From NCBI GenBank assembly GCA_044892505.1, contig CM097883.1:292454001-292518000 (forward strand): DNA of 64,000 nt, read 5' to 3'. The DNA is from Schmidtea nova (Eukaryota). The notes under the pieces are model-generated. The model worked only from the letters and a program-made list of their open reading frames with translations. It was not told the origin of the DNA and did no database searches. The position numbers were made by a program, and so were the translations under genes. This document shows, in pieces, positions 14,343 through 36,901 of the stretch (positions are counted from its first letter, which is position 1; each line of letters starts with the position of its first letter).

Positions 14343-14909
14343 GAAAACATCAGTGTCAGATAACAACCTGTTTTTTTTTATTTTAATAAAAGTGTTTTTT
14401 GTGTAAATTTTGTCTCTCATCGTGTGATTTCACTAAATAAAATAAATGACTCGATTAAATCATAGAAATAGAAAATCTCATCAGTATTTTTCTCGGACCG
14501 ACCGTTTCTACGTAGAGACTGATTAATTACCTTGTAGATCCGTTAAGGAAAGTGCAATTGGGGAAAGCGGGTGATAGATCATGAGGACAGGTAGTATAAA
14601 ATTCATGGGGAAACGAACATCCATAGAATGTAAATGCGTAAGACCTTCTATCGGCAGCAAGGACCCGAGGGAAGATAAATGGGGAGTAGTTTTGGCAACA
14701 AAGCTCACCTGCCCATCATTTTTCCACCACCGTATGCAGTACCAACTTGACTAGTAGGGAATAGGCAAGGGCATACGCGTGTAGTAGTCATGTTATGTAT
14801 GGTTATGGGCGTGGAATCCCTAGTATACGTACTCATCAATAGTCGTTCAATTTATGATTAACTATTTATTTGAATTACTTAAAACCCACCCATAATCCCA
14901 ACATAAATT

Positions 14910-14922
14910 TGGGGGCTCAGCC
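14910..14922 (+). promoter_or_regulatory. Primer-binding site, tRNA-Pro-like
   Basis: TGGGGGCTCAGCC 6 nt after the LTR; the first 9 nt match the canonical tRNA-Pro PBS TGGGGGCTCGTCC. Confidence 0.7.
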
Positions 14923-15250
14923 ATGATTCAACTTTGTTTTTATGCGGAAAAGGTGAACCCAATGACAACAAAGAGTTTTAAAATCAGAATTTTATGAGTA
15001 ACCGAAAGAGTAATCGAGACGAAAGCGAGTTGCGTAGAAATAGATAGTTATAGACAGAGAAGTAAAACAAATTGAGTAAATAAATACAACAACTCAATGA
15101 AATAGATAAAGTAAATAAATGCAATTATAAATAACAGGTAGGGACGACAATTTACCGAAACACGGGGGGAGGCTACAAACTGTCGAAAACGAAACACAGT
15201 ACTACTTTTCCAATAATATTAACACATTATTTAAATAAATTATCTAGGAA

Positions 15251-15712
15251 ATGGAGGAAAAACTGAAAGAAATCGAAGAATTTTTCAACACCGAGAACGA
15301 AACATTTGAGACAGTCTGCGAAAAAATAACCCGAATAAGAGCATCCGAATATGAGGAACCTACGACACAAACTGAGGAAACAACTGAGTTAATAAAAATC
15401 ATAGAGAAAGTAAATAAACTCGATATAAATACGCGATATAAATGGTACAAAGCACGATTAGAGGATGCCGAGTTGAATATCAGATGCCGACATATAGAAC
15501 AGCAGTTAAGCCTAACATATAACCGATGGATGTCGCAAGGGGTCGAGGCAGCAAAACAATATAAACAATGTTACATATGCGAAGACAGTGAAATCCAAAT
15601 AATGTTTCTACCATGCGGACATTTTCGATTCTGTAAAAACTGTGCGAATAAGTGTGATGAGTGCCCCATGTGCAATTTCTCTGTAGCTGATAAAATTGTA
15701 GTTTATTTATAA
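15251..15712 (+). CDS. 153-aa protein with C-terminal IAP/Mdm2-type RING-HC finger
   Basis: CYICEDSEIQIMFLPCGHFRFCKNCANKCDECPMC...KIVVYL at the extreme C-terminus, as in IAP RINGs; no BIR motif seen. Confidence 0.85.
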   Translation: MEEKLKEIEEFFNTENETFETVCEKITRIRASEYEEPTTQTEETTELIKIIEKVNKLDINTRYKWYKARLEDAELNIRCRHIEQQLSLTYNRWMSQGVEAAKQYKQCYICEDSEIQIMFLPCGHFRFCKNCANKCDECPMCNFSVADKIVVYL

Positions 15713-16185
15713 TAAATATTTAGAGTGTTAATATATTGTATCGAATGACAAAGTCAGGGGAGCAATCAACAATGTTAATTAATTTTTGAGCTACTGTCAA
15801 GTAGTCCGTTAAGCACCCATTGGGAGGTACCAGTTGATCAACCCACTCGGGGTATATAGAAAGGGGCCAATCGCAAATGTTGGAAAGCTTTTGTGATGTG
15901 ATTGATCACCACATCCCGCATTAGTAGACCAACGCGATCTTTTTGTATATTTTGGTTGGGGAGAGAAATAGGGAAAACCTTGATGAGGTAAGATGCGCGC
16001 AGAGAAAATAATAAAAATTGAATTATGACTGATCAGCGAAATAATTAGTAATAAAACAAAGAATCGAGGAATTATAGAGAAAAATAAGAGGTGCATAATC
16101 AGCTCGCATGAAATTGAGAGAACTCAGCTGAGAAATTGTAGTCGCTAGCGAAGTTAAGAATTACGATTAACCGGTTAAGGGAAAT

Positions 16186-16459
16186 TTATTAGAATTTGTC
16201 CCTTGAAACAAAGGGTTATTAGAATTTGTCCCTTGAAACAAAGGGTTATCAGCGGTTTGTCCCTTGAAACAAAGGGTTATTAGAATTTGTCCCTTGAAAC
16301 AAAGGGTTATCAGCGGTTTGTCCCTTGAAACAAAGGGTTATTAGAATTTGTCCCTTGAAACAAAGGGTTATCAGCGGTTTGTCCCTTGAAACAAAGGGTT
16401 ATTAGAATTTGTCCCTTGAAACAAAGGGTTATCAGCGGGTTGTCCCTTGAAACAAAGGG
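16186..16459 (+). repeat. Tandem array: 9 x gtcccttgaaacaaaggg with two alternating linkers (61-bp higher-order unit)
   Basis: Cores at 16198, 16228, 16259, 16289, 16320, 16350, 16381, 16411, 16442; linkers ttattagaattt and ttatcagcggttt. Confidence 0.97.
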
Positions 16460-16461
16460 TT

Positions 16462-16619
16462 GAGGCCAAAGAGCCATATTGAATGACCTAGCTAGGCGTT
16501 ATTGAGAGATATGATTTAAGGCCAATAGAGCCATTTGAGATAATTGAGATATGAATTTAAGGCCATAAGAGCCATTTGAGATAATTGATATTAATTAGAG
16601 GCCAAAGGAGCCAATAGGG
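16462..16619 (+). repeat. Degenerate repeats, 4 x ggcca-N2/3-gagcca, ~40-55-bp spacing
   Basis: ggccaaagagcca, ggccaatagagccatttgagataattg, ggccataagagccatttgagataattg, ggccaaaggagcca. Confidence 0.8.
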
Positions 16620-16632
16620 ATATCCGGATATA

Positions 16633-16905
16633 TAGCAACGGAGGGAATATAGGCCCAGGGTTGCAATTAGTTAAAATTAAAGGAAGATAGTAACGGAGGG
16701 AATATAAGCCCAGGGTTACAATTGTTGAGTAGCAACGGAGGGAATATAGGCCCAGGGTTGCAATTATTAAAAATTAAAGGAAGATAGTAACGGAGGGAAT
16801 ATAGGCCCAGGGTTACAATCGTTCGAGTAGCAACGGAGGGAATATAGGCCCAGGGTTGCAAGTGATAAGAAATAACAACAGAGGGAATATAGGCCCAGAG
16901 TTGTG
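16633..16905 (+). repeat. Tandem array: 6 x aacggagggaatataggcccagggtt with alternating linkers
   Basis: Six near-identical cores visible. Confidence 0.93.
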
Positions 16906-17419
16906 ATCGTCGACGATAATGAGAATAGTGCGCACCAGGAATTGAGAAATGCGAGTAAAGCTGATTATGCGACCTAAAATAATGCATGCAAGTAGAATTG
17001 AGAAATAGGAGCTGACCGGAAAGACCGGCAGAATTAATAATTAGAGGCTAGCAGAGAGAAAGATAAAGAGATGATAAAATAATAATCGAGTCAAATGACT
17101 CAGGGAATTAGAGCGTTCGAACGACAAATAAATTGGGAGACCGCGGGAAAAATAATTGATGTATTTTAATAACCGATAGATAATTGTTATGACTAAATAG
17201 ATAATTGTGACCAGTATATAGATAATTTAAATAGACTTAAATAAAGGGGAATCTGGGAATGGGGAAAAATAATAGAAACCCAGTAATGAGAAGTCCCGTA
17301 AAAAGGGAATAAAAGCGCAACGATGACAATAGAGTATCGTTGAAGTGACATTTGTATTTTAAATAAATCAATCAAACCAAACCAAGCAACCAAGGAAGAA
17401 AAGAATCGGAATACGATAA

Positions 17420-18801
17420 GACAGGAAAATTGAGTATACAAAAGTAATCCCGTTGAGAAAAGGAGAAAAGAGTGTCATAATAAAACCAACAGAGAAGAAA
17501 GTCGACAATAAAAGTAACAAAAAAGATCAGACCAGTACTACAACAAACCCAACAAAACAGAAGAAAGCCGGCAAAGATAGTAACAAAAACCCAAAGGGAA
17601 GTAAAGCAAGGCAGATAATAATACAAAAGTCGATTATCGAAAACGATAAATTATCAGTAACAAGCAACAGTTCAAGCAACAAAGAAAATCAAGCAGAACC
17701 CGAGAGAAACCCAATAAGCGAAATAGAAGTCGACAAAACCAACAACGATTATATAGAAGAAATAGAAGACGAAGTAGAACAAGAAACAGAAAGTGACGAT
17801 ACCGATAACGATAGTAAAACATCGGACAACGAATCAGCAAAGGAAACTGAGATCGACATAAATTCAAGTGACGAACATAACAGTGAACTAGAAACAAGAG
17901 GAAACGAAAGTAAAATAACTACAGACAGTGGAATTGAAATGAGCGAACCCAGAGAAGAGATAAAAGACAAATTTTCCGGAGAACCGTTTATTGGAGATGC
18001 GAGTAAACTGGAAACTTTCTTAAAGGAATTTGGCATATTCGTGGAAGTATGCAAGTGGAAACCAGAAACAACTGTAAGCAGAATTCAGCTATATTTAAAA
18101 GATAGCGCATTAGATCTATATTTGGAAGCAAAAAACGGAACTAATCCACCTACAAGTTGGTCAGCGATAAAGGACTTTTTCCAACAAACCTTCCGAATAA
18201 ATAAAGTATTGAATGAGGCATTCACGGAATTCTCAATGAGGAAACAAAAGATAAATGAATCGAATGCGGTATATGCAAGCGAATTGAAAAAGTTAGCAAA
18301 GTTGATCTTTAATCAAGACAGCCCAATAAATGAGGAGTTAATGGCAGCTATCTTTGTGGGAGGATTAAGAAGACCCGACATAAGAGCGCAAGTTGGATGT
18401 CAAGGTTGTAAACCATCGACCAAGCACTAGAAACAGCTAATAGATTTGAACTACACATGATAGGAAATGATGGTAGAATCTATTTAGCTATGGATACAGC
18501 ACAAAACGAACAAGAAGTGAACCTGAATAACCACATTCCAAATTCACAACAATTAAACCGACCACCACCGCAACGAAGGAATGAAGGGAATAAAGTATCA
18601 AACTACGGAAATCAAAGCAATTACAACCCCCAAGGACCAACGAAACAATGCAAAACATGTGGGAAATTGGGACATTGGCAACAAGAATGTTATCAGAACT
18701 TGAATTGTGGAAAATGTGGAGTAAAAGGACATTCAGAGAGCAGATGTTACACAATAACCTGTTTTAATTGTGGACGACCTGGACACCTATCAAGAAATTG
18801 C
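17420..18801 (+). CDS. gag: Gag: acidic/basic N-terminal extension, capsid domain and three CCHC knuckles; 1-nt frameshift at ~18410
   Basis: Ty3-like CA (FLKEF...LYLKDSALDLY...SWSAIKDFFQQTF...YASELKKLA...FVGGL); frame change restores TIDQALETANRFE; knuckles CKTCGKLGHWQQEC, CGKCGVKGHSESRC, CFNCGRPGHLSRNC at 18649-18801; start codon unresolved. Confidence 0.9.
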
Positions 18802-19401
18802 GGACAAAGAAGCAATCAACGAGGAAACTGGCAGAATACCGGAAACCGACAAAACTATGGAAACCAACCAACTGGTGGAAACCGACAGAATTATGGAAAT
18901 CAGCCAAATAATGGAAACCGACCGGAATACGGAAACCAACCAAATAGTAATAATAATAACCAAAATAAAAATACCACTAAAGAGATACATTTAATGCAAG
19001 AGGCTCAAAGATTGACGGAGCTGATAAACAATACAACCAGAGGAAATCCGCAAACAGGTCAACAACAAATCAACATGATGAGAAAAATAGAAAGCGAAAA
19101 CGAACGATTGAATCGGGAAAGCCAAGCACGACATGCTCAGGAATGGGCAAGAATACAAAGAGAAGAGGAACAAAAACAGCAAGAAAGAGAACGACAACCT
19201 CTAAGAATTAATATGATGAGAGCAACCAATCAAACAAATACCCACGAGAAAGAGACGGTGCCAGAAATGAATCCAACAAACCTGAATCCAACCAATAACG
19301 AAAGTCGAAAAGAAATAGTACCAGGAAGCGAAGAAACAGAAACAGAGAAGGAAGTAGAAAAAGAAGGGAACCAAGAAGAGAAAAGGAAACTCGGGAAAAG
19401 G

Positions 19402-21770
19402 GGAATGATGGTAATTTTGCCAAACAACCACGTGTTTCGATTCCAATATAACATAAAGGAAGAAGTAGGAATATTGTTCAACAAAGTGAATGAAATGGCT
19501 CCAGGAGTAACGAAACTGCCCAGAGAAGCATTCCTAAAAATAGAAGGTGCACCAGAAGTAAAATTGAAACTAACAGATACATGGGAAAACATGGGAGTAG
19601 TAGAGACAAAAAGAAATGTGATGGTAATCAAGGAAATAGAACCAGAAGGAATTCCATCGCCAGTGCGTCACGAAACACGAATCAGTCGAATATTTAAAGG
19701 GAAAATGATACGAAGACGGTTGCGAGAAATAGACGAGTTGGAACGAAAAATGAGAAAAGTCAAAGTAGTAGACGACGAGAGTAAATCAACACAAAAAACT
19801 ATCGGAAGGGAAACGAAACCAACGGAAAATCCACCAAATGAAACCAACCAAATAAAACACATTAACATGTTGAGAGGCCAGGCAAAGAATTTTTCAGACG
19901 ACGAAGAGGATAGTGACGTCAGTAGTCTAGCAGGGGACATGCTAAACGAACCAGAAATTGAAGACAAAAAGATAGAAGTAGTAAAGACACCAGAAACTAT
20001 TCAAGTAAAAGAGGACGAGATCCAGAAATTACTAGATAATGCGCTAGAAGTAATATATAATGAGGAATTCATTGACAAGAAACACTATCGAAAATTCATG
20101 AGAGCGATATTACAAATGAACTATAAAGAGTGGTTACCAGGCCGGGAAGTAGAAACACTAAGCCAATACGTAGGAAAATTATTAAAAGAACCACTCCATG
20201 AATATATAATACTAATACAGATAAAAACATGTTTGCCAAGGATTTGGATCAAAACTCCACTCACGGAGGATATTTATCAATGGGTAGAAGACAGATTAGG
20301 GAGTTCGTATAAGAACAAATTCCTCTATTCACAGAATGGACTAGTGAAGAAAAGGACGCACCTGATAGAAACAGGCATATGGCCAGGAGAGGTGACAACA
20401 TTATCGATATGCGATGATAAGATAGAAGAGAACCTACAAGAAGTAGCAAAGGAAGCAAATACGTGTTTCGAGAGAAAAATAAAACCACGGTTAGAGTACG
20501 AAAAAGGACGAATCTTACGAGGAAATCTAAATTCCATGATAGAACAAATCATCCCACAAATCAAAAAACATAGAAAGGAGTTAATGAGAAGCGAATACGA
20601 GAAGTTGAAACGATGTATCGAGTGCATACGTGACACAAGTCACACGAGATGGTCACAGATCTCATACGGAAAAGTAATTGCAAAAATGGGAAAAGCAATG
20701 TTCAGACAAGGGAAAATAACAGATCTAAAAATTTCAGTGGAACTGCCTAATGAGGATACCAAGGAAATTGAAGTGGTAGCAGATTGTACCATAAAAGAAT
20801 TAGTAAATGTCATCAACGAGACACTATTACAAAGAGAACCAGAAGAAGAATGGGAAGATGACATAATCATGAAATATAATGAACATGTATTATGGGATCA
20901 CGATGAAAGACGACTATATAAGATGGGTATATGGGACAATCACCAAACCATCCACGTTATCAGAATGGACGATACACCAAGAGAAACTGCTAAAGATGAG
21001 AAAAGAGAACGAGAACGACAAAAAGAAGTTGTGCACAAACTACAACAGATAGTAGACATTTATCGAAATTGGCGGATTTGGCCAGAATGGGAAAATGTAT
21101 TAGAAGAACTCAATCTCAACAGACGATTACGAACACCTGTAGAAAAGAAATGGAACGAGCGAGGAAAATGTTGGGAACCAAAAGCAGGCGAATACGAAGA
21201 AGAATATGAAATAGGCATAGAAGACGATCACAAACCGGAAACCGGAAGAGTCTGTATGGTAACAAGAAAAGCCATGCCAGCGGATTTAGACGGACAAGAA
21301 ACGGCAACCATGTGGTTGGAAAGAGAAAAACAAAAAACGGAAGAATTTGTCGAAATATAAAAAACCAATGCTCATGGCAAGAGAAAATTAGTAAAAGGTC
21401 TCGCAGATTTTTTCGTAGTTAATGGAGAAGACATAACATGCTTGCGTAAAGTAGCAAAAGCAATCGCCGAATACAAAAGAATTAACGAGTGGTGTCCAGA
21501 ACAATTGGATCACGTAATTAAAAAATGGAGAAACCAAGAATTCTCGCAGGAATCGCCACAGAAAGTACACCTAAGAATAGTATATCCGAACCAAGAAAAG
21601 GAAGAGTTTTGGGTAGGGATAGCGGAGAAAGTTCGAGACATTAAAAAGAAATTGAGATATGAACCACCATTCCATTTACAACACCAAGGACGATCATTAG
21701 ATAACAGCTTGGAAATTGGAATAACGCCAGCGCAATTAGATATCGCAAATACATTGACAGTGGCAGCAAT
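19402..21770 (+). CDS. Polyprotein segment with four ubiquitin-like domains; in-frame TAA at 21358-21360
   Basis: By-eye alignment to ubiquitin at ~19402-19632, ~20200-20412, ~20725-20967 (clearest: LKISVELPNEDTKEIEVVADCTIKELVNVINE...LYKMGIWDNHQTIHVI) and ~21562-21770 (FHLQHQGRSLDN). Confidence 0.65.
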
Positions 21771-22257
21771 AGCAGGTCAACCATTGAAATTGAAAGAGGA
21801 AAAGAAACCAAAAGGAAGTATGAGTACGCCGAGCCCAATGAAATCGGTAATGACTCCAGGAACAAGCTCAGAACAAGCTAGAACAACACCAAGAGAGACA
21901 AGAGAAAGAACACCACCAGAACCATACGATGTAGACGAAATTTTTACAGATAGCGATGATATGTTAGAGGAGTTAATAGAGCTAACAAAAGAGAAAGATG
22001 ATAATATTTTCGAAAGAATTCAAGAATTACCAACAGCAATACCGGTAACCAACACCGAAGATGAAGTCGAACAAGAAATAATCATAGAAGAAGTAAATGA
22101 AATAGCAGAAGAGGAAGCAAGGAGGGCAAATGTAGAAAATGTACAATTCACACAAGAAATGGAAAGATGGTTAGAAGAAAGAGCCAATGAACCAAGAGAC
22201 GTCACAGAAGAAACTGGACGAGAAACAAGATTAGTAGAAACGGGCACGACAATGGAT

Positions 22258-22281
22258 AAACGACCTAGAGGTAGACCCAAG
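22258..22281 (+). other. AT-hook motif KRPRGRPK in the polyprotein
   Basis: Canonical PRGRP core flanked by basic residues. Confidence 0.7.
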
Positions 22282-22419
22282 ATAGATCCAGCAAATGTAG
22301 TTATAAAATCAAGAGAGGAAAAAAGACGGGATCAATGGGATTTGTGTCTAAAGAAACTAAATAAAATAGCCGAAACGAAAGAAAAAGAAACAACACAAAC
22401 ATACCAAGGCGAAGAATGG

Positions 22420-22800
22420 ATATCAAAGATGTTAATGGAAATACTGGCAATAATCGATCCAGAAGTAAAGAAATGGTGGAGAATAAACGAAATAAGCGAA
22501 AGGGCGAAATCACTGCGCCATCGCACCAATCCTACCAGAACTAATAAAAGTAAAGACAAGGTCAAACCAGTTAGATTGGCAAGGAACCACGATGTTGATA
22601 AAGAAGTTAACGGAAGGAGCAGAGACGGATAACAAATATTTAATAGCTATGGCATACACCATTTACAATCTGCTGACACTGAGTAGAGGTCGACTGAAAC
22701 CCACAGCACTTGAAAGACATATAAAGAATACAGCCAAAATTATAGAGAAGGAAATAGAACCGTACATCATCAGTAAAGGAGGATGGGAAACATTCACAAA
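22420..22800 (+). CDS. Bcl-2-like domain; frameshift at ~22500
   Basis: KEIEPYIISKGGWETF versus Bcl-xL BH2 DHLEPWIQENGGWDTF; degenerate BH1-position helix KYLIAMAYTIYNLL. Confidence 0.75.
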
Positions 22801-22918
22801 AACGAACCAAAAGAAAAACCAAGCCAAAAATATGAAAAAGAAATTCGAAGAGATATTGGGAGAATTGGAAAAGGAAAAGTCGGGAACAGGAAACGGGAAA
22901 TCATCACTAAACTTGAGT

Positions 22919-24735
22919 TCTATCATTATGATGATGTTAATATGGATGATTAGTACTGACGGCGCAACAGCATTTGAAGTATTCGATTGCGATCAAATGG
23001 CATTAGGTGAAAAATACTCATTACGAGGGACAGAACAATGTAAAGACGCAACCCCAACGGAGCTAAAAACATTAAAAAAGAGACAATTATACCACGTATA
23101 TCAGGAAGCTGAAATGATAAGAACAATGGTCAGAGAATGCAAAGTTTATAAAACCAGATTTGCTTTTTATTGTGGACACCGCCATTATTCAGCAATCGTG
23201 ATGCCAGGAACGGAAAGAGAATCGGTAATGCTGCAAGGAGAAGACTGTGAAAAATTATTCAAACATGGAGAAGTAGAGACTAGAGATAGAGTAAAGATAA
23301 GAGGAAAAACGGGAGTGATATTGCAACAAACATATTATGTAGCAGGAGCTATTACGGGAGGAGAAGGGTACTGCCAAGGAGCAACATATCCAATATTCGG
23401 AGTAGCAGCAACAAACCTAGTGGTAATAGATACCTATACAGTAGAATTAAAAACGTACGAGGCATTCTTCGATCCAACAACGGGAGAAATGAAAACCCTG
23501 CCCATGTGCAAAATCGAGTCAAACACTTGCCAAACCGGTATGTCAACCTTAACATACCAGATACGAGGAAAAGAATGTCAACTACAACTGTTAAAGGAAG
23601 CAGAATTCGATGAGATACAAGGGAAAACCTTCCAAGAGGAAGAAGAAGACGAGGCAGCAAGAGGAAAAATACTTCAAGACACAGTACGGGGAGAGAAAAA
23701 GATTGAAACCCGAACACAAGAAAAACAAATTAAAATGAGAAATACACCAACGGTACTAATTACCTCAGATGCAGATATCGGAATGAGGTTTGTAAAAGGA
23801 AAAACAGCCTTGAAATGCGGAATAACCATGTTGGAAACCAACTACCCCGGCATTTTCGTATCGAAACAAGAAGTACCTAGTGCGAAACGCAAAGTGAACA
23901 CGAACGATGTTAAATTACACCTTTACATGAACAATAAGATGGATTTTCTATTCCATAGAGGACAAGCGTCACTACAAAAAGTGTATTACGACTTAATTAA
24001 CAACGATTGCATATTAAATAGGGAAATATTAAAGACAAAACTAGCAGTAGCAATCACAAACCCGGATAGTGCAATGCCACTATTACCATTGAGAGAAGGT
24101 CATTTTGGAAGGGTAGTCGGAGAGGTCATGTATGTATACATATGTAAAAAGACAAACGCGAAGGTAGCGACAATGACAAAATTACAACCAGGTCAGTGTA
24201 CTAACGAACTAGAAATCGAATATAAAGGGAAAGTAAGATATGTGCAACCAGTGACAAGAATCATAAATCCAGTAAGCTTCGAACCAAACCCTTTCAATTG
24301 CAGCAACGCATATGGACCACTATACCAAAAACCAGACGGGAATTGGGTTATGTTTCCGTCAAGAACAGAGGTACCAGCACCAAGGGAATTTGAATTGATG
24401 CAACTATCAAAAGGACGAAAATTTAAAGACGTAGATGTAAGTAATATGGGATTCTATAGCGCAAAAGACTTAGAGGCAGCGAGACAAAACATACTATTTC
24501 CAGCAAGAAGGGAAGCGGTGCTATCCAGTATTGTAACAATAACAGGAGGAACAAATTACCAAGGTGGACCAAATTAAGAATTATTATTGTCACCAGCCCA
24601 CTTTAAGAAGGCAACGGAAAACATGATGAAAGCGATGTGGGGAAGATTTTTAATATTTGGACAAATGATGGCAGGAATACTTGGGGTTATACTAATTATA
24701 CAAATAATACGGGTAATAATAACGCAAATGTTAGC
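22919..24735 (+). CDS. env: Envelope: internal signal peptide, class III (chuvirus/gB-type) fusion glycoprotein and TM; in-frame TAA at 24575-24577
   Basis: SSIIMMMLIWMIS..ATA|FEVFDC...YSL....C; ECK...FYCGHRHYS; NDCILNREIL...GEVMYVYIC...CTNEL...QPVTRII...CSNAYGPLY; TM FGQMMAGILGVILIIQIIRVII lies after the stop, in the same frame. Confidence 0.85.
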
Positions 24736-25284
24736 CTGTTTTGACATCTATAAAAGAGAAAAGAAAGTAAATTGGAAATTGGTGGTAGGATTCTTACCAT
24801 TTTTGGCTAAAACAATGGTATTACACGGTCATTCAAAAGATATTCACCGAATAAAGAGACTCCTAAAAATACTGGCAAAAATGAAAGGAACCGATGAAGA
24901 GGTGGGACGAAAATTTAAAAAGATAATGAATAACGAGCAAGCAAGACAACAACTAAAGAAAGAGAGAAAAGGACTATGGGAAAGAATGAAAGGGTACAGA
25001 ACCCAAGACGATTCCAGTGACGACGATGATGATGATAACGAAGGAGGTCAAGTATTTAAAAATCAAGTACCACAGTACGTCGAAAAGAATCCAGCGGAAA
25101 TGTGGAAGTGTTACGCACCCCCACCAACCATGTACCAAGAACCAACACCAGGGATGAGACAAAATACAATGCAAATGATGCCGATGACAAACATATATCC
25201 TATGATACCAGAAGACTATAGAACGAGACGGTGCAGAAGCGTAGATCCGCAAGGAGACTCACATACAATTGCAGTAATGTCATC

Positions 25285-28200
25285 AAACACCGGTCCAGTA
25301 TTAACTACAACAATCGAAATTAACGGAAGGGAAATAGAAGCGATGATTGATACAGGAGCAAATATCTCAGCAATAGATATAAAATGGATACCACAAGAAC
25401 AAAGACGGGATATTGAGAGAACCAACGTTCACGTAATAGCATGCAGTAAAGAAGTAGTAGAAGTTGCCGGAAGATGGTGGGTAAAGATAAAACATCAAAA
25501 CACGGAAATCGAAACGTACGTAGCAGTAATACCAGCACTAAGCGTACCATGCATTATAGGCACGGATCTGATGCCAGCATTATTTAAAGAAATAGTTATT
25601 GATCTCGGAACAATGAGACTAAAGGATAGGACAGGACAGATATGCGCAATAGAAGCAAAAGTAACAAGTTCGAAACAAATAATCGTACCAGCACGGAGAG
25701 AGAAAATATGCTTCGTAAAAATAGACCCTACAATAGAAGGTGACATGATTTTTGAACCCAGTAAAAGATTTGAAAAGAGAAAGTCGTTGCCAATGGCAAG
25801 GGGATTAGTGAGTGCGAATGAAAACGGAGAAATCCCAATAAATGTAGTAAATTTCGATGAAGAGGATAAAATAATTTATGAAAATGAAAGATTAGGTAAG
25901 CTAACTCCAATGATGGATATCGAAATACCAATAAGAGAGGGAGAAAAAGATGAAGAACCCACCTGGAACATTGATAGCCAACTATTAAATGAGGATCAAA
26001 AGAAACAGCTAGAAAGATTACTGATAGAATATAAAGACATATTCGCAGCATCCGATTTAGATCTAGGGACATGCGACGTCACACTACATACGATTCCACT
26101 AACAGACGAAACGCCGATTGCGTTAAGACCATACAAGTTAGCTGAAGCGCAAAAATCAGTAGCAGAAGCAGAAGTACAGAAAATGCTAGACGCAGAAGTA
26201 ATTGAACCAAGCTGCTCACCGTGGCAATTCCCAGTTGTAATGGTGAAAAAGAAAGACGGAACACAACGATTTTGTATTGATTATCGGAGATTAAATTCAG
26301 TTACAAAAAGGGATACATACCCATTACCGGACATCAACGAGATGTTATTGACATTACAAGGAGCGGCATATTTTACATCATTGGATTTGAAAAGCGGATA
26401 CTGGCAAATTAAAATGAAGGAGGAAGACAAAGAGAAAACTGCTTTCACTATCGGAAGAGACTTGTACCAATTTAGGAAAATGCCATTCGGACTAACCAAT
26501 GCGCCAGCATCATTTCAAAGATGTATGAATTTCGTTACCCACGGCATAAAACAATGCATGGTTTACATTGATGACCTACTAATCTACTCAAGCACATTTG
26601 AACAACACATCCAAGATATCAGAGATGTATTTGTGAGATTGAGACAATGGAAACTCAAGCTCAAACCATCGAAATGCGATTGGGCAAAAGAGAAAGTGAC
26701 ATTTTTAGGACATATTGTGTCCGCAAAAGGAAAGGAACCGGATCCCAGAAACATTGATAAAGTAAAAGAATGTCCAATACCAAAGACTATAACGCAGATC
26801 CAAGAATTTATCGGATTATGCGGTTTCTATAGAAAATTCATAAAGGATTACGCAGGAATTGCAAAACCAATCCAAGAGCTAGTAAAGAAAGACGTATCGT
26901 TCATATGGGGAACCGAACAACAAACAGCTTTCGAAACATTGAGAGACAAGCTAATAACTGCACCAATATTGGTTCACCCGGATTTCAAAAAGCCATTTTT
27001 ACTCGCAACCGACGCAAGTGGATATGCAGCAGGAGCAGTGTTAGGACAATATGATGACGAGGGAAAAGAGCGGGTAATCGGATATTATAGCAGAACATTC
27101 AAGAAACACGAGAAGAATTATTCAGTAACGGAAAGAGAAGCATTGGCAATAATATTAGCAATAAAACACTTCAAATATCTATTATGGGGACACATTATAT
27201 GCATAACCACAGACCATCAACCACTTGTATGGCTAGGACAACATAAGGAAACATCCAGCAGGTTAATGAGATGGGCGATGCAATTACAAGAATATTCACC
27301 AGATATAAAATTCAAATCAGGAAAAGCGAATGCCAACGCAGATTGCATGTCAAGATTAACGTTTCCAGAACTAACAGACCCAGAAGTGCAAAGAATATGC
27401 ATAGTGATAGCAGAGGATTTGGATTTCAGCGAGTTAAAGAAAGATCAGCAAGAGGATAAAGAACTAAGATCCATCATAGAATTCCTAAGCTCACGGAATA
27501 TGGATGTATTCAAAGACAATGCGGAGTTAAAAGAACACATGAGGAAATACCAACATCGATACACAATAGAAAAGGATGGTTATTAATACAGGATGGAGAA
27601 AAACGATTAATGTGTCTGCCAGGTAATAGACGAAAAGAGATAATAACTCAATACCACGACGGAAAGTTGGGAGGACACATGTCCGATAAGAAAACATTAG
27701 ATCGCATGAGACAAAAATATTATTTGCCAACAATGGACGAGGACGTAAAGGAATGGATAAAGAACTGTTTAACTTGTGCCACAAGAAAGGATAGTGGGAA
27801 GAAATGGAAAAATCCCTTAAAACCCATGCCAATACCAGCGGAACCAATGACTACCATTGCGATGGATGTAATAGGACCATTGCTAGAAAGTTTAAACGGG
27901 AATCAATATATATTGGTAATAACGGATTATTTGACTAAATTCCCTGAGGCATTTGCGATGCCGGATCAAAAAGCAAAGACCGTAGCAAGAATTTTAGTAG
28001 AGGAAATATGTTGTCGATACGGAACCCCGAAACAAATACTAACAGATCAAGGAACAAATTTTATGAGCGAAATATTAGATGAAGTAACAAATTACTTCAG
28101 AATAGCCAAATTACGAACGTCACCATATCATCCGCAAACTAATGGACAAACGGAAAGATTTAACGGCACATTGATTCGAATGTTATCCAATTATGTAAGC

Positions 28201-28740
28201 AAACACCAAACAGATTGGGATGAGTACATAAAGCTATGTCTAATGGCATACCGAATGTCGATACACGCAGCAACAAAATTGAGTCCATTTCAATTAATGT
28301 ATGGAAGGGAATGCAATATGCCAATAGATCTTGAATATCAACCACCTTTGTCTCAATATATGGAGGAAGATGATTACGTCACCAAATTCAAAGAACGAAT
28401 GCAAGAGATATGGAAGACAGCAGAACTAAACATAAAGTTTTATCAAGAAAGTTACAAGGACCTACACGATCAAAAGAAAAATGTTAAAACAAATGATCTT
28501 AAACCCGGAGATTGGGTAATGATAGAAACCCCAGAAATAATACCAGGAACCGTTAAAAAACTACAAAGACCAGGAAAAGGCCCTTACGAAGTTATATACA
28601 AAAAGGAAAACAATGTGAAGGTAAAACTTGTTAATCGACCATTGATACGACCAATATACGTTAATACATGCAGATGTAAAAAAGTACCAAAGACAATAAC
28701 CACAGCGCCAGAAGAACGAATAATAACCAGATCCCAGACA
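25285..28740 (+). CDS. pol: Pol: aspartic protease, dUTPase-like spacer, RT, RNase H, integrase; 1-nt frameshift at ~27581
   Basis: DTGA 25349-25360; YIDD 26564-26575; TDASG...EREALA...TDH...NADCMSR; HHCC finger, MDVIGP, TDQG, QTERFN, GPY. Confidence 0.97.
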
Positions 28741-28769
28741 GCCAGAATGAATATGCTCAGAGCAACCAA

Positions 28770-30470
28770 TGAAAGTACCGAAGCAGAAAACAATCAACAA
28801 GAAAAAAGAAACAAGGAAATTGTACTAAAAGCCAGAGAAATGATGGGAAAATGGCATGTCAGAGACGATATATTAAGAGATATACAATTGATAATTAGTG
28901 ATTACGCAAGGGGACTACCAACAAAACCAGTCATTTCAGAACTACTGGAGAAAATTCCAGAAATACTTTCACTACAAGACATAGGAGGACAACCAGCATT
29001 ACATAACGCCATAAAATTGGGAGAAGTAGAGAGAGTAAAAGAATTTCTAAAAATCGCAAAGGAAACAAACCAACACCTTGGTTTTGGGAATAGCGAACAA
29101 GAAACACCATTAATGGTAGCAGCCATCTACAAATCGGATAAAACAATAATAGACCTTTTGATAAATGCCGATTTCAACTGGACGGAACGCGATAGAGAAA
29201 ACAAAACAGTCTTGAATCACGCAATATGGAGCTCAAATCAGATAATGCTCAAACAAATAATCGAGAAGGCCACTTGGGAAATAGACGAACTGATCAAGGG
29301 TGATATAATAAAGGAAGCAATAAAAATCGGTAACTGCAAAACAATACGCAAGCTAATAAAATGGAAAAGATCCGAAAATGATACATGGGTGCTAAATATA
29401 AACGAGGTATACAGTGAAGGACAAAACGCGTTATTACAATTCCTATTAAAATTAGTTTGTGATCAGAAAACACTGTTAATATTATTGGACAGAAGAAATA
29501 TCACAATTTCCAAAAACAAAGAGGAGTGTAAATTCGAAAGTGAAAAAGAAGCATTATTCAGGAAAATTAGGGAATGGTGTGCAAAATCGCTAACCAAGTC
29601 GATAACTTACAAAGATATATCCAATTTTCAAGATAAGTACAAAACGGTGGAGGAAGAGTATGACAAACTAGTAGACATATTAAACCACCCCGAAAAATGC
29701 AAACAATTCCTATGTCAAAAGGAAAGAGAAAGCAAAAGGAAATTTACACCACTTTTCAGCGCAGAGGTACCATATCAAGAAAGGTTGGATGCGATACAAG
29801 ACAAAGCAAAAGAACTATTACCAGAATTCGAAAATTCTAAACATACACTGGAGATACTCGGAGCAATTGTGGAAAAGGTACACGCATACGCGGAAGGAAC
29901 TTACAATGAAAACGATATGATGATCATAAAAAGAGAAATGCCAGTGACTTTCTTATTAACAAAGAAGGGAGTATTGCCAATACATAGAGCCTTACGAGCA
30001 GGAAAAGATAGGAGGGTAGTCGAAATTGCACGGTTGATGCAAGATTGCGGAAGTGACATGAACATGAAAGATAAATAGGGAGATACCCTCATGATATTCG
30101 CAGCAAGAGCGAACACAAAAACCCGAGTGTTACAGGAACTGTACGAAGCAGGTGCAGGACTCATGGGAAGAACGGGCAAAGACAGCTCAATACTAGACGT
30201 AGCATTGTTAACGCACAATTGGGAGGTGATAAATTTTATAAAAACAATCACAAATCAGGAAGAAATAGAATACCTTACAAGGACAGTTAAAAAAGCTAGC
30301 GTACATTCCATGATGCATAACGCTGAACTAACCGAAGCAATACTCAATTGGATGAACCCAAACACCAATGAACCAGCATTCAGGATCAACGAGTTCATGG
30401 AACAAGGCCAAAAATTTGTATATAAAGTGTGCATTAATAATAAACAAATGGCCAAAGATAATGGACAAGA
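28770..30470 (+). CDS. Ankyrin-repeat region fused after integrase; in-frame TAG at 30076-30078
   Basis: GQPALHNAIKLG, ETPLMVAAI, DRENKTVLNHAI, GVLPIHRAL, KDK*GDTLMIFAA, SSILDVAL. Confidence 0.88.
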
Positions 30471-30566
30471 AAAAAAGAAGAAAAAAAGAAGAAAAAAAGA
30501 AGAAAAGATTTACGATTCACAAACAACCCAAAAGAAACAGAACGTACGGACAAATGGAAAGAACTA

Positions 30567-32912
30567 ATGAAAACGTACCTTAATAATTGGATAAAAGCCA
30601 AGAAAGAGATTCTAGATTGTAAATTAACCGATAAGGAAATACCTAAGCAGGCAGAAACACAAGAATATGAAGCAAGTATACTCACAACCATAACGTATGA
30701 AAAAATGATAGAAGCAATTAATGTCGAGGACGACATTTTCAACGACCAAAGGGGAGGCGACAATACAGGAAACGACGACGATAGTACTCGAGAAAATCCA
30801 GAGGATCATGAGTTATCAGATAAAGAGGACAGTGAAGAGAAAGGAAGGGACACAGAGAAAAATGATAAGAAAAATGAATTTGGGAAACAAAGAAACAACA
30901 ACTATAAAAATAAAAACGAAGCAAAAAGAACAGGCTACAAACAAACAATAAACCCATTCTTTAAACCAGAACTATTATTACTAACGGTAATCATGACCTT
31001 AATTAGTCCAACTCAAGGAATGATATGTGAAGAAAGAGCGACAATACAAATTAGAAACGCAAAAGGAATCGAACGAGTATGTTGGTCAAAAAAGGACAAA
31101 ATCTCGGGACAAAATAGTCAAATGGATTGCAGGATCTCAGAATACGAACAAGAAATCATAGAGATCGATGACTTAGAGCTAGATACTTGGTACAAAATAT
31201 GCACCATCAGAAAACAAAGGAATCCAAGATCACACAACACAATCGCATGTGCAAACTACCTAACACCCAAAGTAACCATAACAGTACAGCAGTCATCCAA
31301 AGGAGACTATGTCGTAGGAAAGTGTGGAAGAACAGAGACACAAGGAACAAAAAACAAGAAACCCCAGACAATAGACAGACGAACAACGCCAACTATACGA
31401 ATTACAATAGACAAGCCCGAAGCAAGAGTAACCACAAACGAGACCGAAAGAGTGACCTACCAAACAGAATTACTATGTTTAGCACTCATATTAACAATGT
31501 TAAAACGGTTAGAAGAAGGGATAGACATTGACACAATGGCAGTAACAGAGATGAACGACACCCAAAATACCAACCCAAAGTGTTGGGCCCGAAACAACGA
31601 AGAAATTGGCATAAGCGAAATAAAGAGGAGTCGGAAAAGGAAAACAAATAAAGTAACCAAGATACCAAAAGTAAAAGCAGACAGGACGTATGAACTATGT
31701 TTACTAGAAAAAGAAAGACACAAGAAAGGAACGACAATTTGTAAAACATTTCAACCTGGGGAGGCAATAAAGTTCATAAGAAGAAGAAGAAGAAATATAC
31801 GCACCAAACGGAGAACAACTATAATGTTAGAGTTAACCGGGATAGAACCGGACGTCAAAGGCGTATGCTGGAAGAAGCAGGAAAAGAAAACAAACCAGAA
31901 TATACCGCCGCAATGTCGAACAAACAGAGGAACAACCACAATACAGATCGAAGGATTAGAAAGCAATCAAACGTACGAAATATGCCTGATTAGGAAAAGC
32001 GACAAAATAACAGTAAATGAATTGGAATGCAAATTATATAAAACACCCACCAGAACAAGAGTTGGAAAGACATCGCGAAAAAGTAGAAGACAACGGAACA
32101 AAGGAAAAGCGAGGTATACCACTACCTTTAAACCTAATGGACAACAGAAAAACCAAGAAATACAAATAAAAACCGAAAAGAATACTACAGCAACTCTTAT
32201 ACTATGGAGAATAGACAATAAAACGTTAGAAATATGTTGGGCAGTAGTTCAGGAACAAAAAGAAAGACAGCCACGATACTGCGAAAACGTAAAAGGAAAA
32301 GAAGAAATGAGTATCAAAAATCTGAAATTTAATAGAGAATACGAGATATGTGCGGTAGAAAAGACGGACATATTGGGAAATCAGCAGGAAAGATGCGAAA
32401 CGTACTACACACCGGTAAACTCAACGTCCAAAGGGAAAGTGAGAAAACTCGAATTTAAAGAATTAAGTCAGACAACGAAACAAATGGACGCAGAACAAGT
32501 AGTAATAGACCCTTACGCAAGATGGACGCCGGAAGAAGTAATTAAAGAAGTTAAAAGAAAACAACAAGAACGAGAACAATTACTAAATAAACTAAAGGGA
32601 CAATACGGACCAATGATTACCCAGAGTGAAATTACGAAGATGGACGTAAACAAACAAGTTAGAGAACTAATTGGTCTAGGAATACTAGCAGCAACTATTC
32701 CAGTAATAACAGTGTTATTAATAATATGGATATACGATGTACTCAACAAGAAACCAATAACACATTGGCCAGATATAAAAATTATGAACTACAGAATAGA
32801 ATTACCGGAAGAAGTACAGAAAGAATTTCAAAGGAGGACGAAAGGTAAAGAATTTTGGAGACAAATAGAAGATGAAGAGCGGTACGAAGGAAAGACAGTG
32901 ATGGTGATATAG
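30567..32912 (+). CDS. 781-aa membrane protein with four Cys-containing FN3-like repeats; frame open from 30462, probably continuous with the polyprotein
   Basis: Signal-like ELLLLTVIMTLISPTQG; repeated W...I..L....Y.IC motif (IDDLELDTWYKIC, IPKVKADRTYELC, IEGLESNQTYEIC, IKNLKFNREYEIC); polybasic linkers; TM LIGLGILAATIPVITVLLIIWIY. Confidence 0.75.
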   Translation: MKTYLNNWIKAKKEILDCKLTDKEIPKQAETQEYEASILTTITYEKMIEAINVEDDIFNDQRGGDNTGNDDDSTRENPEDHELSDKEDSEEKGRDTEKNDKKNEFGKQRNNNYKNKNEAKRTGYKQTINPFFKPELLLLTVIMTLISPTQGMICEERATIQIRNAKGIERVCWSKKDKISGQNSQMDCRISEYEQEIIEIDDLELDTWYKICTIRKQRNPRSHNTIACANYLTPKVTITVQQSSKGDYVVGKCGRTETQGTKNKKPQTIDRRTTPTIRITIDKPEARVTTNETERVTYQTELLCLALILTMLKRLEEGIDIDTMAVTEMNDTQNTNPKCWARNNEEIGISEIKRSRKRKTNKVTKIPKVKADRTYELCLLEKERHKKGTTICKTFQPGEAIKFIRRRRRNIRTKRRTTIMLELTGIEPDVKGVCWKKQEKKTNQNIPPQCRTNRGTTTIQIEGLESNQTYEICLIRKSDKITVNELECKLYKTPTRTRVGKTSRKSRRQRNKGKARYTTTFKPNGQQKNQEIQIKTEKNTTATLILWRIDNKTLEICWAVVQEQKERQPRYCENVKGKEEMSIKNLKFNREYEICAVEKTDILGNQQERCETYYTPVNSTSKGKVRKLEFKELSQTTKQMDAEQVVIDPYARWTPEEVIKEVKRKQQEREQLLNKLKGQYGPMITQSEITKMDVNKQVRELIGLGILAATIPVITVLLIIWIYDVLNKKPITHWPDIKIMNYRIELPEEVQKEFQRRTKGKEFWRQIEDEERYEGKTVMVI

Positions 32913-33037
32913 GAGGCGGGATATGACTGTAAATAATAGTGTAAATAACAATGCATTACCGTATTAGTAGGGGTATCGATATTATAAAAATATAAAAAGA
33001 GAAATCGAGAAAACGAATAATGTATATAATTTAGAAA

Positions 33038-33394
33038 ATGAACGAACAGGAAGAAATAGCAGAAACTACTATGGCTATGCGATGGAAAGCCCAGTGTGAC
33101 ATGTTAATACGAACAATCAACTCACTACAAAATCAGTTAATGGAGAAACAGAATTTGTTATCCGAAAGTTATAATAATAGTTTTGAGCAACTCCACAGAA
33201 TCGAGGAGCAACAGAGATTGATAACGCAACTTACCAGAGAGAATCAAGCGATAAGCGATATAAACCAAAGGCAAGCAATAGAGATAGACCGTTTAACAAT
33301 GGGAGAGACAGAAGAAGCAGAGGATAGATGGACAAATTGGGCAATAAACAGATCAGAAAATGACCCAGAACCAGATTCAACAAACGAGCCGTAG
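33038..33394 (+). CDS. 118-aa coiled-coil protein, unknown function
   Basis: ATG ORF bounded by AT-rich spacers; heptad-like Q/E/L pattern. Confidence 0.65.
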   Translation: MNEQEEIAETTMAMRWKAQCDMLIRTINSLQNQLMEKQNLLSESYNNSFEQLHRIEEQQRLITQLTRENQAISDINQRQAIEIDRLTMGETEEAEDRWTNWAINRSENDPEPDSTNEP

Positions 33395-33485
33395 ATAAAT
33401 AAAGCGAAAAATTGTAAATATGTAAAAACAAAAACAAGAAAAATCAAAAAATAGATAACAAATCAAGTGTATATATCATTGTAGA

Positions 33486-34868
33486 ATGAATACAGAAGGA
33501 AAAGCCGAAGAGCGGATAATCGAAATTTTGAGAGCCGAGAACAGGAAATGGAGTCAGAGACTCACTTGTGTAAATTGTAAAAACATAATATTGAAACCAA
33601 GACAAACCCTATGCGGATGCAGAGTATGTACCAAATGCATACACGAGTTAAGTATGAAAAGACCACCAGAATGTCCAGAATGCAAAGAAGGACAAATAAA
33701 ATTCGAAGAAACCGGACCAGATAGAGCAACTCAGAGAGAAATCATGAACACGAAAACCGAATGTATAAATCAACCATGTATATGGCAAGGACAAATACGC
33801 GATCTCGAGAACCATCTGGAGAACTGCGAGGAGAAGAGAACTGAATGTAACAAATGCCAACAAAAAATAACTATAAAGAATAAAGAGCAGCACAAAGATG
33901 AATGTAAAGAAGAGGAAAGTCTATGCGAATATTGTGGAACTCGAGAAACGAGGAGAAAGATCGAAGAAGAACACCTGAATGTAAAAGAGGAGAAAGTATG
34001 TAGACAATATGTAGGAATATGTTCAAACGAATGCGAGATAACGGTAGAAGTAAAATTACAAGAACATTGGAAAGTGTGCACGGAGAAACCAAGGGAATGT
34101 CCTTATAACAAACAGGGATGTATGGAGAAAAGAACGCAACAAACCATGAAACAACATCTGGAGGAAGCATTGCTAAAGCATGCGGAAATGACAAACGAAG
34201 CAACAAAAGAAACCGAACAAACAATCAAAAAATTAGAAAGAGAAATAGAGTCACACAAGATAATGGTAAACCTACTGTTGGAAACCAGAGAGCAATTCGA
34301 ACTAACACGAGAAAAGATGGAGGAAAAGATAAAAGCTATCGAAGAATTGGCTAAAGGAATGAAAATCCAGTAAAACAAACTCACCCAGGATACCGAGGAA
34401 AAGCTACCAATCGCACCATATGTGTGGAAAGTGACAGATTTTAGAGACAAATTAACAGAGGCCAGAAATATGACGAAAACAGCAGTAATAAGCCCACCAT
34501 TTTATTTATGGAGAAACGGAGCTAAAGTGAGATTGAAGCTATACCCAAATGGAGACGGAAGAGGACGGGGAACACATGTGTCAATATTTTTCTCGCTATG
34601 TAAAGGAGAATACGACGACCTCGTAGAATGGCCCTTGAAAGTAGGAGTCATTATAAGAATCAGAAGTGTAACAAAACCGGTGGAAAAATTCTTTGAGACA
34701 GAGAAACATGCGAGCACGAGCGAGAAACCAACCACAGAATGTGGATTAGCAGCGGGAGAACCGATGTTTATAACGAAAGAAAGCCTATGGGAACGATTAT
34801 ATGCAGACACCCTATACATAGAAATGGAAAGGAATGAGAAAGCGGATAGAAAAGGATGGTTGACGTAA
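33486..34868 (+). CDS. Full-length TRAF-like protein (RING, TRAF zinc fingers, coiled coil, MATH); in-frame TAA at 34371-34373
   Basis: CVNC...PRQTLCGCRVCTKC...CPEC; PDRATQREI...C....C.WQG; WKVTDF...ISPPFY...KVRLKLYPNGDGRGRGTHVSIFFSLCKGEYDDLVEWP. Confidence 0.92.
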
Positions 34869-34981
34869 CAAGAAAAGTGATCATGTAAATAATATGTACA
34901 GTTAAATACCCAAAAATTATTATATAAACAAAAATAACTGATATATAAACCGATTAAAATTTTCATTCTGTAATTATAGCA

Positions 34982-36043
34982 ATGGGAAATATCGAAGTAT
35001 GCTTACAGGAAATTACGATGCATCAAGCAGAAGCGATTAGCGATCATCTAGAACAGATTGAAATATGGGTCAATGCATATTATGGAAAGCCAGAGGAGAT
35101 AGAGAGACAAGCCGAATTATTAAAAGAAGCGGAAAGATCAAGTCAAAGAAATCGAGAAAAAATAGAAGAAGTATACAAAATGCTACAACAACAAAAGGAA
35201 TATTACCAGGGAATGATGAAAGAGCGACGAGAGGAAAGAGACAGACAGCAGATGGAAGCTGAACACAAGATGTATTCGATTACAGAACAAGCAAGATACT
35301 GGAAGAAAGAAGCGAAAGAATCTTACGAAAAAGCTAGAGGAATAATAGAAAAGACAGCTTATAGTGATGACTGGAAATTATATAAAGAAATCGACGAATT
35401 AAAAGACGAGTTAGAACAGAAAATACACCAAGAAGTGTTGAATAAGAGATGGAATACAAAGAGACAGCAATTTATCCGGGAACAAGCAAAGAAAATTAAA
35501 GGACTCACCTATCAAGTTCAAAGAATGGGAGAAGAACTAGATAATCAAGAACAACTGAAAATTATGCTCACCGGAATATGGAATCAGAAAGAAGAAGAGA
35601 TGAAGAGAGATATAAATGGTTATCAAGGAGTGATTACCCAGAAGAAAATAGAGCTAAAAAGAACCAGAGAAAGGTTAAAGGAAGAGAAACAAAGTTATGA
35701 GGAAAATTTAACGAATTTGATGAAAGAAAACGAAGAATTGAAACAGAAACGAGTAACAGTATCAGTAACACCCAAAGAAGCAAGTATAACGGCAGCCGTA
35801 ACAAAAATGATGAAAGAAGACGAACAAAAGACAAAAGCAATCGAATTAGAGAAGCAAATAGAAACATTAACAGAACAAGCAAATTACCTAGAATATTTGC
35901 TGGACGAGGAGATCCAGATATCTCACATGTATCGAGATGAAGTCGAAATGTGGAGGAGCAGGGTTGTTTGGATACCACTCCCCACGAACCAGGTAGAACC
36001 TCAGGACGAAGGTTTCTATGAACCAAATGAGACGATTGTGTAA
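34982..36043 (+). CDS. 353-aa coiled-coil protein, unknown function
   Basis: Long uninterrupted E/K/Q/R-rich ORF. Confidence 0.75.
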   Translation: MGNIEVCLQEITMHQAEAISDHLEQIEIWVNAYYGKPEEIERQAELLKEAERSSQRNREKIEEVYKMLQQQKEYYQGMMKERREERDRQQMEAEHKMYSITEQARYWKKEAKESYEKARGIIEKTAYSDDWKLYKEIDELKDELEQKIHQEVLNKRWNTKRQQFIREQAKKIKGLTYQVQRMGEELDNQEQLKIMLTGIWNQKEEEMKRDINGYQGVITQKKIELKRTRERLKEEKQSYEENLTNLMKENEELKQKRVTVSVTPKEASITAAVTKMMKEDEQKTKAIELEKQIETLTEQANYLEYLLDEEIQISHMYRDEVEMWRSRVVWIPLPTNQVEPQDEGFYEPNETIV

Positions 36044-36697: not shown

Positions 36698-36886
36698 AAC
36701 TGATAAATTACATTCACTTTATGTATGATCCACGTACAATTAACAATAATATGACTTTATGCTTAAGTATAAAAACTTATCACCTTATGTGATTCTTTGT
36801 GTATATGTAAATTGACATTTATCTGTTTAATTTTTATGTATGATGATATAGGTGTAAATGTATGATTAATTGCGGGACGCAATTTT

Positions 36887-36901
36887 GGGGTCCCCGAGTG
36901 A
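36887..36901 (+). promoter_or_regulatory. Atypical polypurine-tract position
   Basis: ggggtccccgagtga directly precedes the TG of the 3' LTR; not purely purine. Confidence 0.45.

Follow-up and report, generated by a model that had tools for sequence, protein, structure and literature searches.

We analyzed a 64,000-nucleotide stretch of the Schmidtea nova genome (GenBank assembly GCA_044892505.1, contig CM097883.1, positions 292,454,001 to 292,518,000 of the forward strand), referred to below as the window, whose numbering is used throughout. It carries a Ty3/gypsy element of 28.7 kb (11553–40249) bounded by 3.35-kb long terminal repeats (LTRs) that are 99.5% alike, and this element is host to an envelope (env) region that a preliminary description had placed between gag and pol. 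We read the element as Burro-like, a young but damaged member of a giant Ty3/gypsy family with a single Gag-Env-Pol frame, whose product is predicted to cross the membrane four times and whose Pol is probably packaged by membrane tethering; we put the probability of this reading at roughly 0.55.

An envelope inside a single polyprotein frame

The family's long open reading frame (ORF) has the order Gag, ubiquitin-like domain (Ubl), Bcl-2-like domain, Env, protease (PR), reverse transcriptase (RT), RNase H (RH), integrase (IN), ankyrin repeats (Ank), second signal, fibronectin type III (FN3)-like part and transmembrane segment (TM). Its features in the window are as follows:

17420–32912, +: family polyprotein ORF, about 5,140 amino acids (aa), from open frames in sister copies
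18089–18801, +: Gag capsid domain and three CCHC zinc knuckles (PF03732, E = 1.6e-4; PF00098, E = 3e-08), the knuckles starting at 18649, 18706 and 18760
20728–20934, +: ubiquitin-like domain, weak (PF18036, E = 0.1; ubiquitin, E = 0.076 in a second family of the same genome, described below)
22420–22790, +: Bcl-2-like domain directly before signal 1, start approximate (PF00452, E = 0.11–0.12)
22913–22972, +: internal signal peptide 1, predicted cut before FEVFDC (hydrophobic core and small −3/−1 residues)
22973–24637, +: Env ectodomain, class III fusogen of chuvirus/gB type (PF24664, model and fold matches)
24575–24577, +: premature stop private to this copy (sense codon in sisters)
24638–24751, +: membrane-proximal region and TM1 of Env (Kyte-Doolittle 2.57)
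25307–25579, +: retroviral-type aspartic protease, DTG at 25349, motif IDTGA from 25346 (PF00077, E = 1e-08)
26243–27295, +: reverse transcriptase, YIDD at 26564, and RNase H (PF00078, PF17917)
27619–28596, +: integrase with HHCC, core and, at 28579, what we take to be a GPY/F-like motif (PF17921, PF00665)
28999–29268, +: ankyrin repeats joined behind integrase (PF12796, E = 5.5e-13)
30948–31019, +: internal signal-like peptide 2 (hydropathy)
31020–32420, +: second ectodomain of four repeats, likely FN3 (invariant C, W, Y, C in the aligned repeats)
32658–32753, +: TM2, followed by a short tail to the stop at 32910 (Kyte-Doolittle 2.65)

The signal-like stretch, FEVFDC ectodomain, TAA codon, transmembrane helix, linker and DTGA protease are all present in one frame, where the preliminary description had placed them, and the shared frame of signal, ectodomain, TM and protease is far beyond chance. 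FEVFDC begins at 22973, directly after the hydrophobic stretch that ends at 22972. The Monjiviricetes fusion glycoprotein profile PF24664 matched up to profile position 510 before the stop (E = 2e-57) and again from position 523 after it (E = 3e-09); because the match resumes past the stop, the TAA at 24575 cuts a single domain. The ectodomain contains 14 cysteines, 13 of which are at least 90% conserved among 109 aligned relatives.

A model built from the 109-row alignment reached a predicted local distance difference test (pLDDT) score of 90.7 and contained a central helix of 48 residues. When it was compared with 48,161 solved chains, the first eleven matches were all class III proteins (gB, thogotovirus GP, vesiculovirus and lyssavirus G, and GP64), led by gB of herpes simplex virus (Z 9.6, root-mean-square deviation (rmsd) 10.1, 433 aligned residues) and of human cytomegalovirus (Z 8.6, rmsd 6.7, 408 aligned); these Z values are modest, yet well above the first unrelated match at Z 3.7. 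In sequence searches, a profile search of the PDB returned gB only (E = 1e-4) and a single-sequence search of the PDB returned no match, while a word-indexed protein search with the ectodomain found nothing and an exhaustive one found 823 matches. The best matches in BFVD were chu-like glycoproteins (E = 5e-36, TM-score up to 0.73), and an Atlas look-alike search gave 0.89 at best, for PF24664, which we treat as a lead only. The modelled fold thus places Env among the class III fusogens, with the chuvirus/gB type, as the preliminary description had proposed.

Three stops (21358, 24575 and 30076) break the polyprotein ORF of this copy, as do frameshifts near 18420, 22500–22630, 27460–27586 and 30460–30567; the second of these frameshifts disrupts the Bcl-2-like domain. 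Sister copies are 97–98% identical, and the family is abundant and young. A 600-nt probe of the genome gave 779 candidates, 40 of which were scored and 30 given as loci; the sisters sampled were those with the best scores (40 scored of 779, and 40 of 919 candidates), a choice that favors young, intact copies. The six breaks other than codon 24575 were open in 19/19, 19/19, 18/19, 18/19, 18/18 and 15/17 mapped sisters (from 20 sisters with flanks). A frame of at least 5,095 aa was open in 30 of the 67 copies scored with the C-terminal part and measured exactly 5,140 aa in 21 (hand count), and signal to protease was open in 19 of the 29 sisters chosen by env. The family frame opens at 17420 in 18/20 sister stretches, with the first methionine of this copy about 170 codons in, and the stop at 32910 is common to 17/20. 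Since the sister junctions are open and frames of about 5,140 aa exist, Gag, Env and Pol form one ORF without a programmed frameshift. The preliminary description had recognized env as in frame with the protease and had suggested that Pol could be packaged without Gag-Pol frameshifting; it overlooked that Gag shares the frame as well (17420 to 32912).

The TAA at 24575–24577 is the sole stop in the env/protease frame between 22496 and 27583. Were it programmed, readthrough or a separate pol start would yield secreted Env and a little Env-Pol. Such a stop is seen in this copy only: the codon is sense in 48/48 mapped sisters (29/29 chosen by env and 19/19 mapped among those chosen by RT), and of the ten stops found across 30 aligned stretches, none occurs more than once. 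We therefore regard a programmed stop as ruled out and codon 24575 as a private lesion.

The same arrangement recurs beyond this family. A PF24664 search (3411 candidates, 68 scored) identified a second, abundant family in the same genome with the same order, a more compact build and an Env 34–36% identical. Env through protease lay in one frame in 31/40 of its stretches (four copies fetched twice), and in two 9.9-kb stretches an unbroken frame ran through Gag, CCHC, Bcl-2, Env and Pol. The Bcl-2-like domain (PF00452) occupies the same position in this second family (E = 1.2e-4 and 7.8e-4) and in the library relative P0007 (E = 1e-3). Among 16 library relatives scanned, nine had Env followed by protease in one protein, and one (P0065) had Env behind a BEL-type DUF5641; one of P0003–P0019 is labelled as a protein from a bacterial metagenome-assembled genome and is likely contamination. 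In P0003, P0004, P0005 and P0019, two to five tandem protease-like D[ST]G domains, which could be single-chain dimers, lie behind the Env TM, and P0003 has another such domain behind integrase. In a quick Env tree (best 150 hits only, C-terminal part, 123 rows), Envs embedded before Pol formed a 21-row group (SH-aLRT 98) apart from the DUF5641-linked P0065; the tree does not show a single origin of the gag-env-pol order, and by Pol such elements are not monophyletic (PMC13524379).

Env is under strong purifying selection. Pairwise ratios of non-synonymous to synonymous substitution (dN/dS) among sisters were 0.03 for Env, 0.03 for RT-RH and 0.04 for IN, and shared Env variants comprised 85 synonymous versus 3 non-synonymous changes. 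Between two subfamilies of the second family, the corresponding values were 0.035 against 0.037, near saturation. Env was retained in 19/20 copies chosen by RT, the remaining one being cut inside the RT region by another insertion. This retention, together with a dN/dS of 0.03, indicates that replicating copies need Env, and a constraint equal to that on RT argues for a working envelope step. Env could instead be an inert relic carried in frame by an element that moves only within cells, and our literature search returned no reported particles or infection for Burro. The match between the dN/dS of Env and those of the Pol enzymes, its counterpart in the second family, the 13 conserved cysteines and the complete class III fold all speak against a relic, which we consider very improbable and, on the selection data, largely ruled out.

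Predicted membrane topology and the packaging of Pol

Signal 1 showed a hydrophobic core and small residues at −3/−1 in 12 of the 13 proteins having the motif (15 examined), and the 30 residues following TM1 were net basic in 11/12 proteins. Behind TM1 lies a second, marginal hydrophobic patch that is conserved (hydropathy 0.3–1.7; 1.39 in this copy). It is followed by the protease after a long, low-complexity linker of about 180 residues between TM1 and the enzyme. A signal-like stretch behind integrase was found in all six sequences reaching that far, with −3/−1 judged by eye. The full succession of signal-like stretch, ectodomain and TM at this position occurs in this family, in two second-family copies and in the relatives P0003 and P0008; P0012 shows it less clearly.

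The second ectodomain is likely FN3-like. A single-sequence model of low confidence (pLDDT 43) matched FN3 (Foldseek E = 6e-06; Z 8.2, rmsd 2.4, 71 residues), a profile of its repeats reached tenascin at E = 0.6–1.1 only, and searches of Pfam and of PDB sequences gave no match. It is the least constrained part of the polyprotein ORF (dN/dS 0.31 for 31020–32420) and showed no recognizable similarity to the ectodomains that other families carry behind integrase. Its position may represent a swappable surface slot.

Taken together, these features predict that the family polyprotein crosses the endoplasmic reticulum (ER) membrane four times, which would leave Gag-Ubl-Bcl2-like and Pol cytosolic and Env and the FN3-like part luminal. 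The cytosolic placement of Pol behind the Env TM, suggested in the preliminary description, agrees with this prediction, signal and TM both being conserved.

All retroelements have to package Pol within the capsid, which they normally do by fusing it to Gag. Under established ER topology, a cut at signal 1 would separate Gag from Pol, and ordinary Gag-Pol packaging would thus be excluded for translocated chains. We propose that signal peptidase cleaves behind both signals. Signal 1 would be retained and would hold the Gag-Ubl-Bcl2-like part at the cytosolic side of the membrane, in a manner comparable to the flavivirus capsid anchor, while luminal Env would carry the whole PR-RT-RH-IN-Ank block as its cytosolic tail, the far end of which would also be held by signal 2. 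The FN3-like part would become a separate type I membrane protein. Gag and Env-Pol would arise in equal numbers on one membrane, where they would co-assemble and bud, and the element's protease would then release the capsid and enzymes. We consider such tethering of Pol to Env plausible as a prediction, at a little under even odds.

Several points weigh against this model. The topology was derived from hydropathy and the −3/−1 rule. Signal 1 is a short segment (19-residue hydropathy 1.47 in this copy) about 1,850 residues from the start of the chain, and its use may be leaky. The second patch behind TM1 could form a further crossing and upset the model, and clustering of the protease on Env trimers could free Pol before budding. 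Finally, retroviruses make Gag in excess over Pol and Env; a Gag:Env:Pol ratio of 1:1:1 is far from this excess and would require that most Env-Pol be kept out or degraded.

A close rival keeps the same polyprotein and topology but has the protease free Pol early from the Env tail, after which Pol would be packaged via genomic RNA or Gag; foamy-virus Pol, for comparison, is packaged without a Gag fusion. The long low-complexity linker that separates TM1 from the protease suits early release, the two to five tandem D[ST]G domains of several relatives could permit cleavage in cis, and the need to pack one Pol per Env would be avoided. However, the linker region is conserved (dN/dS 0.08), and the second anchor behind integrase was present in each of the six sequences extending there. 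We hold early release to be less probable than tethering.

Some chains might instead skip signal 1, or an env-less spliced RNA might be made, giving a cytosolic Gag-Pol-like fusion while translocated chains supply Env only. The shortness of signal 1 and its distance from the N terminus would favor skipping, and a minority product of either kind would mimic the logic of frameshift-controlled Gag:Pol ratios. Against this, skipping would leave an ectodomain with 14 cysteines unfolded in the cytosol, and an env-less copy was not among the 20 chosen by RT (19 retain env, and an insertion interrupts the other). No joint removing env alone was seen among 15 of 50 joints, the four runs being contigs of unknown kind and uninformative on expression or splicing. 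We judge this route improbable.

Beyond tethering itself, Burro-type elements might be flavivirus-like enveloped retroviruses, with an anchored Gag, an Env bearing Pol as its tail, and the FN3 protein serving as attachment or trigger partner of the gB-like fusogen. This wider picture is speculative and, in our estimate, rather unlikely; if true, it would amount to a two-component entry system of a kind that our literature search did not find described for retroelements.

Other parts of the element and its surroundings

Outside the polyprotein ORF, the element contains the following features:

11553–14903, +: 5′ LTR (TG...CA), 3.35 kb, differing from the 3′ LTR by 11 mismatches and 3 gap openings over 3353 columns
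14910–14927, +: candidate primer-binding-site-like sequence, beginning TGG, 6 nt past the 5′ LTR (seen in the sequence)
15248–15712, +: upstream accessory ORF, C3HC4 RING finger (PF13920, E = 9e-12)
33459–34868, +: downstream accessory ORF, TRAF-like, zinc fingers and MATH (PF02176, PF22486)
36902–40249, +: 3′ LTR

Identical 4-base sequences on both flanks are likely a target-site duplication, and the flanking DNA is AT-rich. No tRNA gene was found within the 64-kb window. Canonical Metaviridae have about ten purines before the 3′ LTR (PMC7879559), whereas here no polypurine tract was found upstream of it, the longest purine run in the last 30 nt being 5 in 12/12 sisters. These 30 nt (36872–36901) could form a small hairpin in this copy (−4.8 kcal/mol, without control).

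The stop of the RING ORF is common to 17/20 sister stretches and its dN/dS is 0.12; judged by its position, it may be of IAP type. Between it and gag, the leader (16134–16921) contains tandem arrays of 30/31-nt and 97-nt units. In the TRAF-like ORF, a stop at 34371 is private to this copy, the frame being open there in 18/18 mapped sisters. Two further accessory ORFs, 33035–33394 and 34958–36043, are under purifying selection (dN/dS 0.15 and 0.12) and had no Pfam family match above cut-off; the latter looks coiled-coil-like by eye. Two ORFs of 171 and 198 codons lie within the LTR (12906–13421 and 13746–14342, repeated at 38251 and 39091) and gave no notable Pfam match.

The element is flanked on each side by a 75-nt host repeat (11457–11530 and 40538–40612), the right copy about 290 nt past the 3′ LTR, and 41008–41256 forms a 124-nt inverted repeat, 92% complementary, with a 1-nt spacer. 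Further out are a hAT dimerisation remnant (10085–10762), an unrelated gypsy integrase fragment (51519–52274) and a C4 zinc finger of nuclear-receptor type that is possibly a host exon (61238–61723).

Comparison with known systems

The element has the features of canonical Metaviridae in its LTRs, its gag with capsid and nucleocapsid, and its pol order PR-RT-RH-IN. In that family, env lies downstream of integrase where present (PMC7879559); here it lies upstream of PR. The preliminary description treated env as normally a separate ORF downstream of pol, which is too broad: env is in frame in the BEL/Pao element Atlas, a single Gag-Pol-Env polyprotein with env behind pol (PMC9094657), and in Burro (PMC6431247). 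It also cited env capture by BEL/Pao elements such as Tas and Anakin. Anakin does carry a glycoprotein of the same chuvirus-type family (PMC7642597) and Tas a gB-like env (PMC9094657), each behind integrase. The closest solved structure to the RT is nevertheless that of Ty3 (E = 8e-90), and its motif is YIDD, as opposed to YVDN in nematode belpaoviruses (PMC9094657). The element is thus Ty3/gypsy, and BEL/Pao membership is ruled out by its RT and by an env that is not behind integrase.

The layout itself, implied to be new in the preliminary description, was described in 2019 for Burro and in 2026 as a widespread class. Arkhipova and Yushenova (2019) reported for Burro a single giant ORF in which env, with hits to mononegavirus glycoproteins, lies between BCL2 and PR, and termed this the first case of an env placed in frame between gag and pol (PMC6431247). 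Burro1–4/GYPSM1 are giant gypsy-like elements of Schmidtea mediterranea, and a Burro-like element occurs in Dugesia tigrina (PMC6431247). Giant size, long LTRs, one ORF (4,873–5,140 aa in Burro), an N-terminal Gag with CCHC knuckles (two or three in Burro), a BCL2-like domain followed by in-frame env before PR, ankyrin and MATH/TRAF are common to Burro and the present element (PMC6431247). The Ubl/SUMO-like domain that precedes BCL2 in Burro has a weak candidate counterpart here (E = 0.1), and for the dUTPase-like domain that Burro carries between PR and RT, a Pfam search of 25601–25999 gave no match at E up to 1. In the present element the common features take the form of 28.7 kb, a 5,140-aa frame in sisters, three knuckles, ankyrin repeats and MATH/TRAF, with env in frame between the Bcl-2-like motif (weak here, E = 0.11; clearer in the second family, E = 1e-4) and the protease; the agreement with the upper Burro length is possibly chance, Burro having been compared by description only.

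There are also differences. MATH/TRAF is in a downstream accessory ORF here versus ORF1 or upstream in Burro, and three knuckles with a separate TRAF ORF mix two described Burro types (PMC6431247). No BIR domain was found in the 13 internal ORFs or two LTR ORFs scanned, all of 100 aa or more, and we therefore file the element as Burro-like only, not as Burro1–4 proper. The section on Burro names no signal peptides, second membrane protein or packaging model, and words env as gypsy-Env-like, not class III (PMC6431247).

Chary and Hayashi (2026) described HSV/gB-type GAG-ENV-POL errantiviruses in Platyhelminthes, Nematoda and Bryozoa, including Smed_errantivirus_1–6, using DeepTMHMM and AlphaFold (PMC13524379). 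The present element has in common with them a gypsy-type Pol, the gag-env-pol order, many recent copies and a class III gB-type Env with signal or TM flanks (PMC13524379); its gB-like ectodomain, of the five-domain class III kind, is bounded by the signal and the TM. By eye, its Env has motifs in common with the Smed Env rows in supplement 3 of that study. The flatworm errantiviruses listed there span 12–18 kb, compared with 28.7 kb here; giant forms fall outside that set because LTRs more than 14 kb apart were excluded from its LTR calls (PMC13524379). The words polyprotein, fused, Burro and fibronectin do not appear in the main text (PMC13524379). In non-canonical nematode endogenous retroviruses, described by Sacco et al. 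(2022, J Gen Virol 103:1739; as cited in PMC13524379), env likewise precedes pol, the order having flipped after a metavirus captured an RNA-virus glycoprotein; the topology or processing of these elements may already be treated by Sacco et al.

In a literature search that was not exhaustive, we found no published account of how a gag-env-pol layout packages Pol. Nor did this incomplete search reveal a conserved four-crossing topology that anchors Gag through signal 1 and tethers Pol at both ends. The signal peptides or the FN3 protein may already have been described by Lee et al. 2026 (on Burro1), Grohme et al. 2018 or Sacco et al. 2022, or in their supplements. Expression of Burro1 is reported for the stem cells and the gut of planarians (PMC8532177, PMC13465017), so that the packaging question can be tested on native material; piwi knock-down is reported to raise Burro RNA (PMC8532177). 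The element is Burro-like and fits the gB-type GAG-ENV-POL group. A class III env that lies between gag and pol in the same frame is already in print; to that layout, our analysis adds a conserved predicted four-crossing topology, selection on Env and the question of how Pol is packaged.

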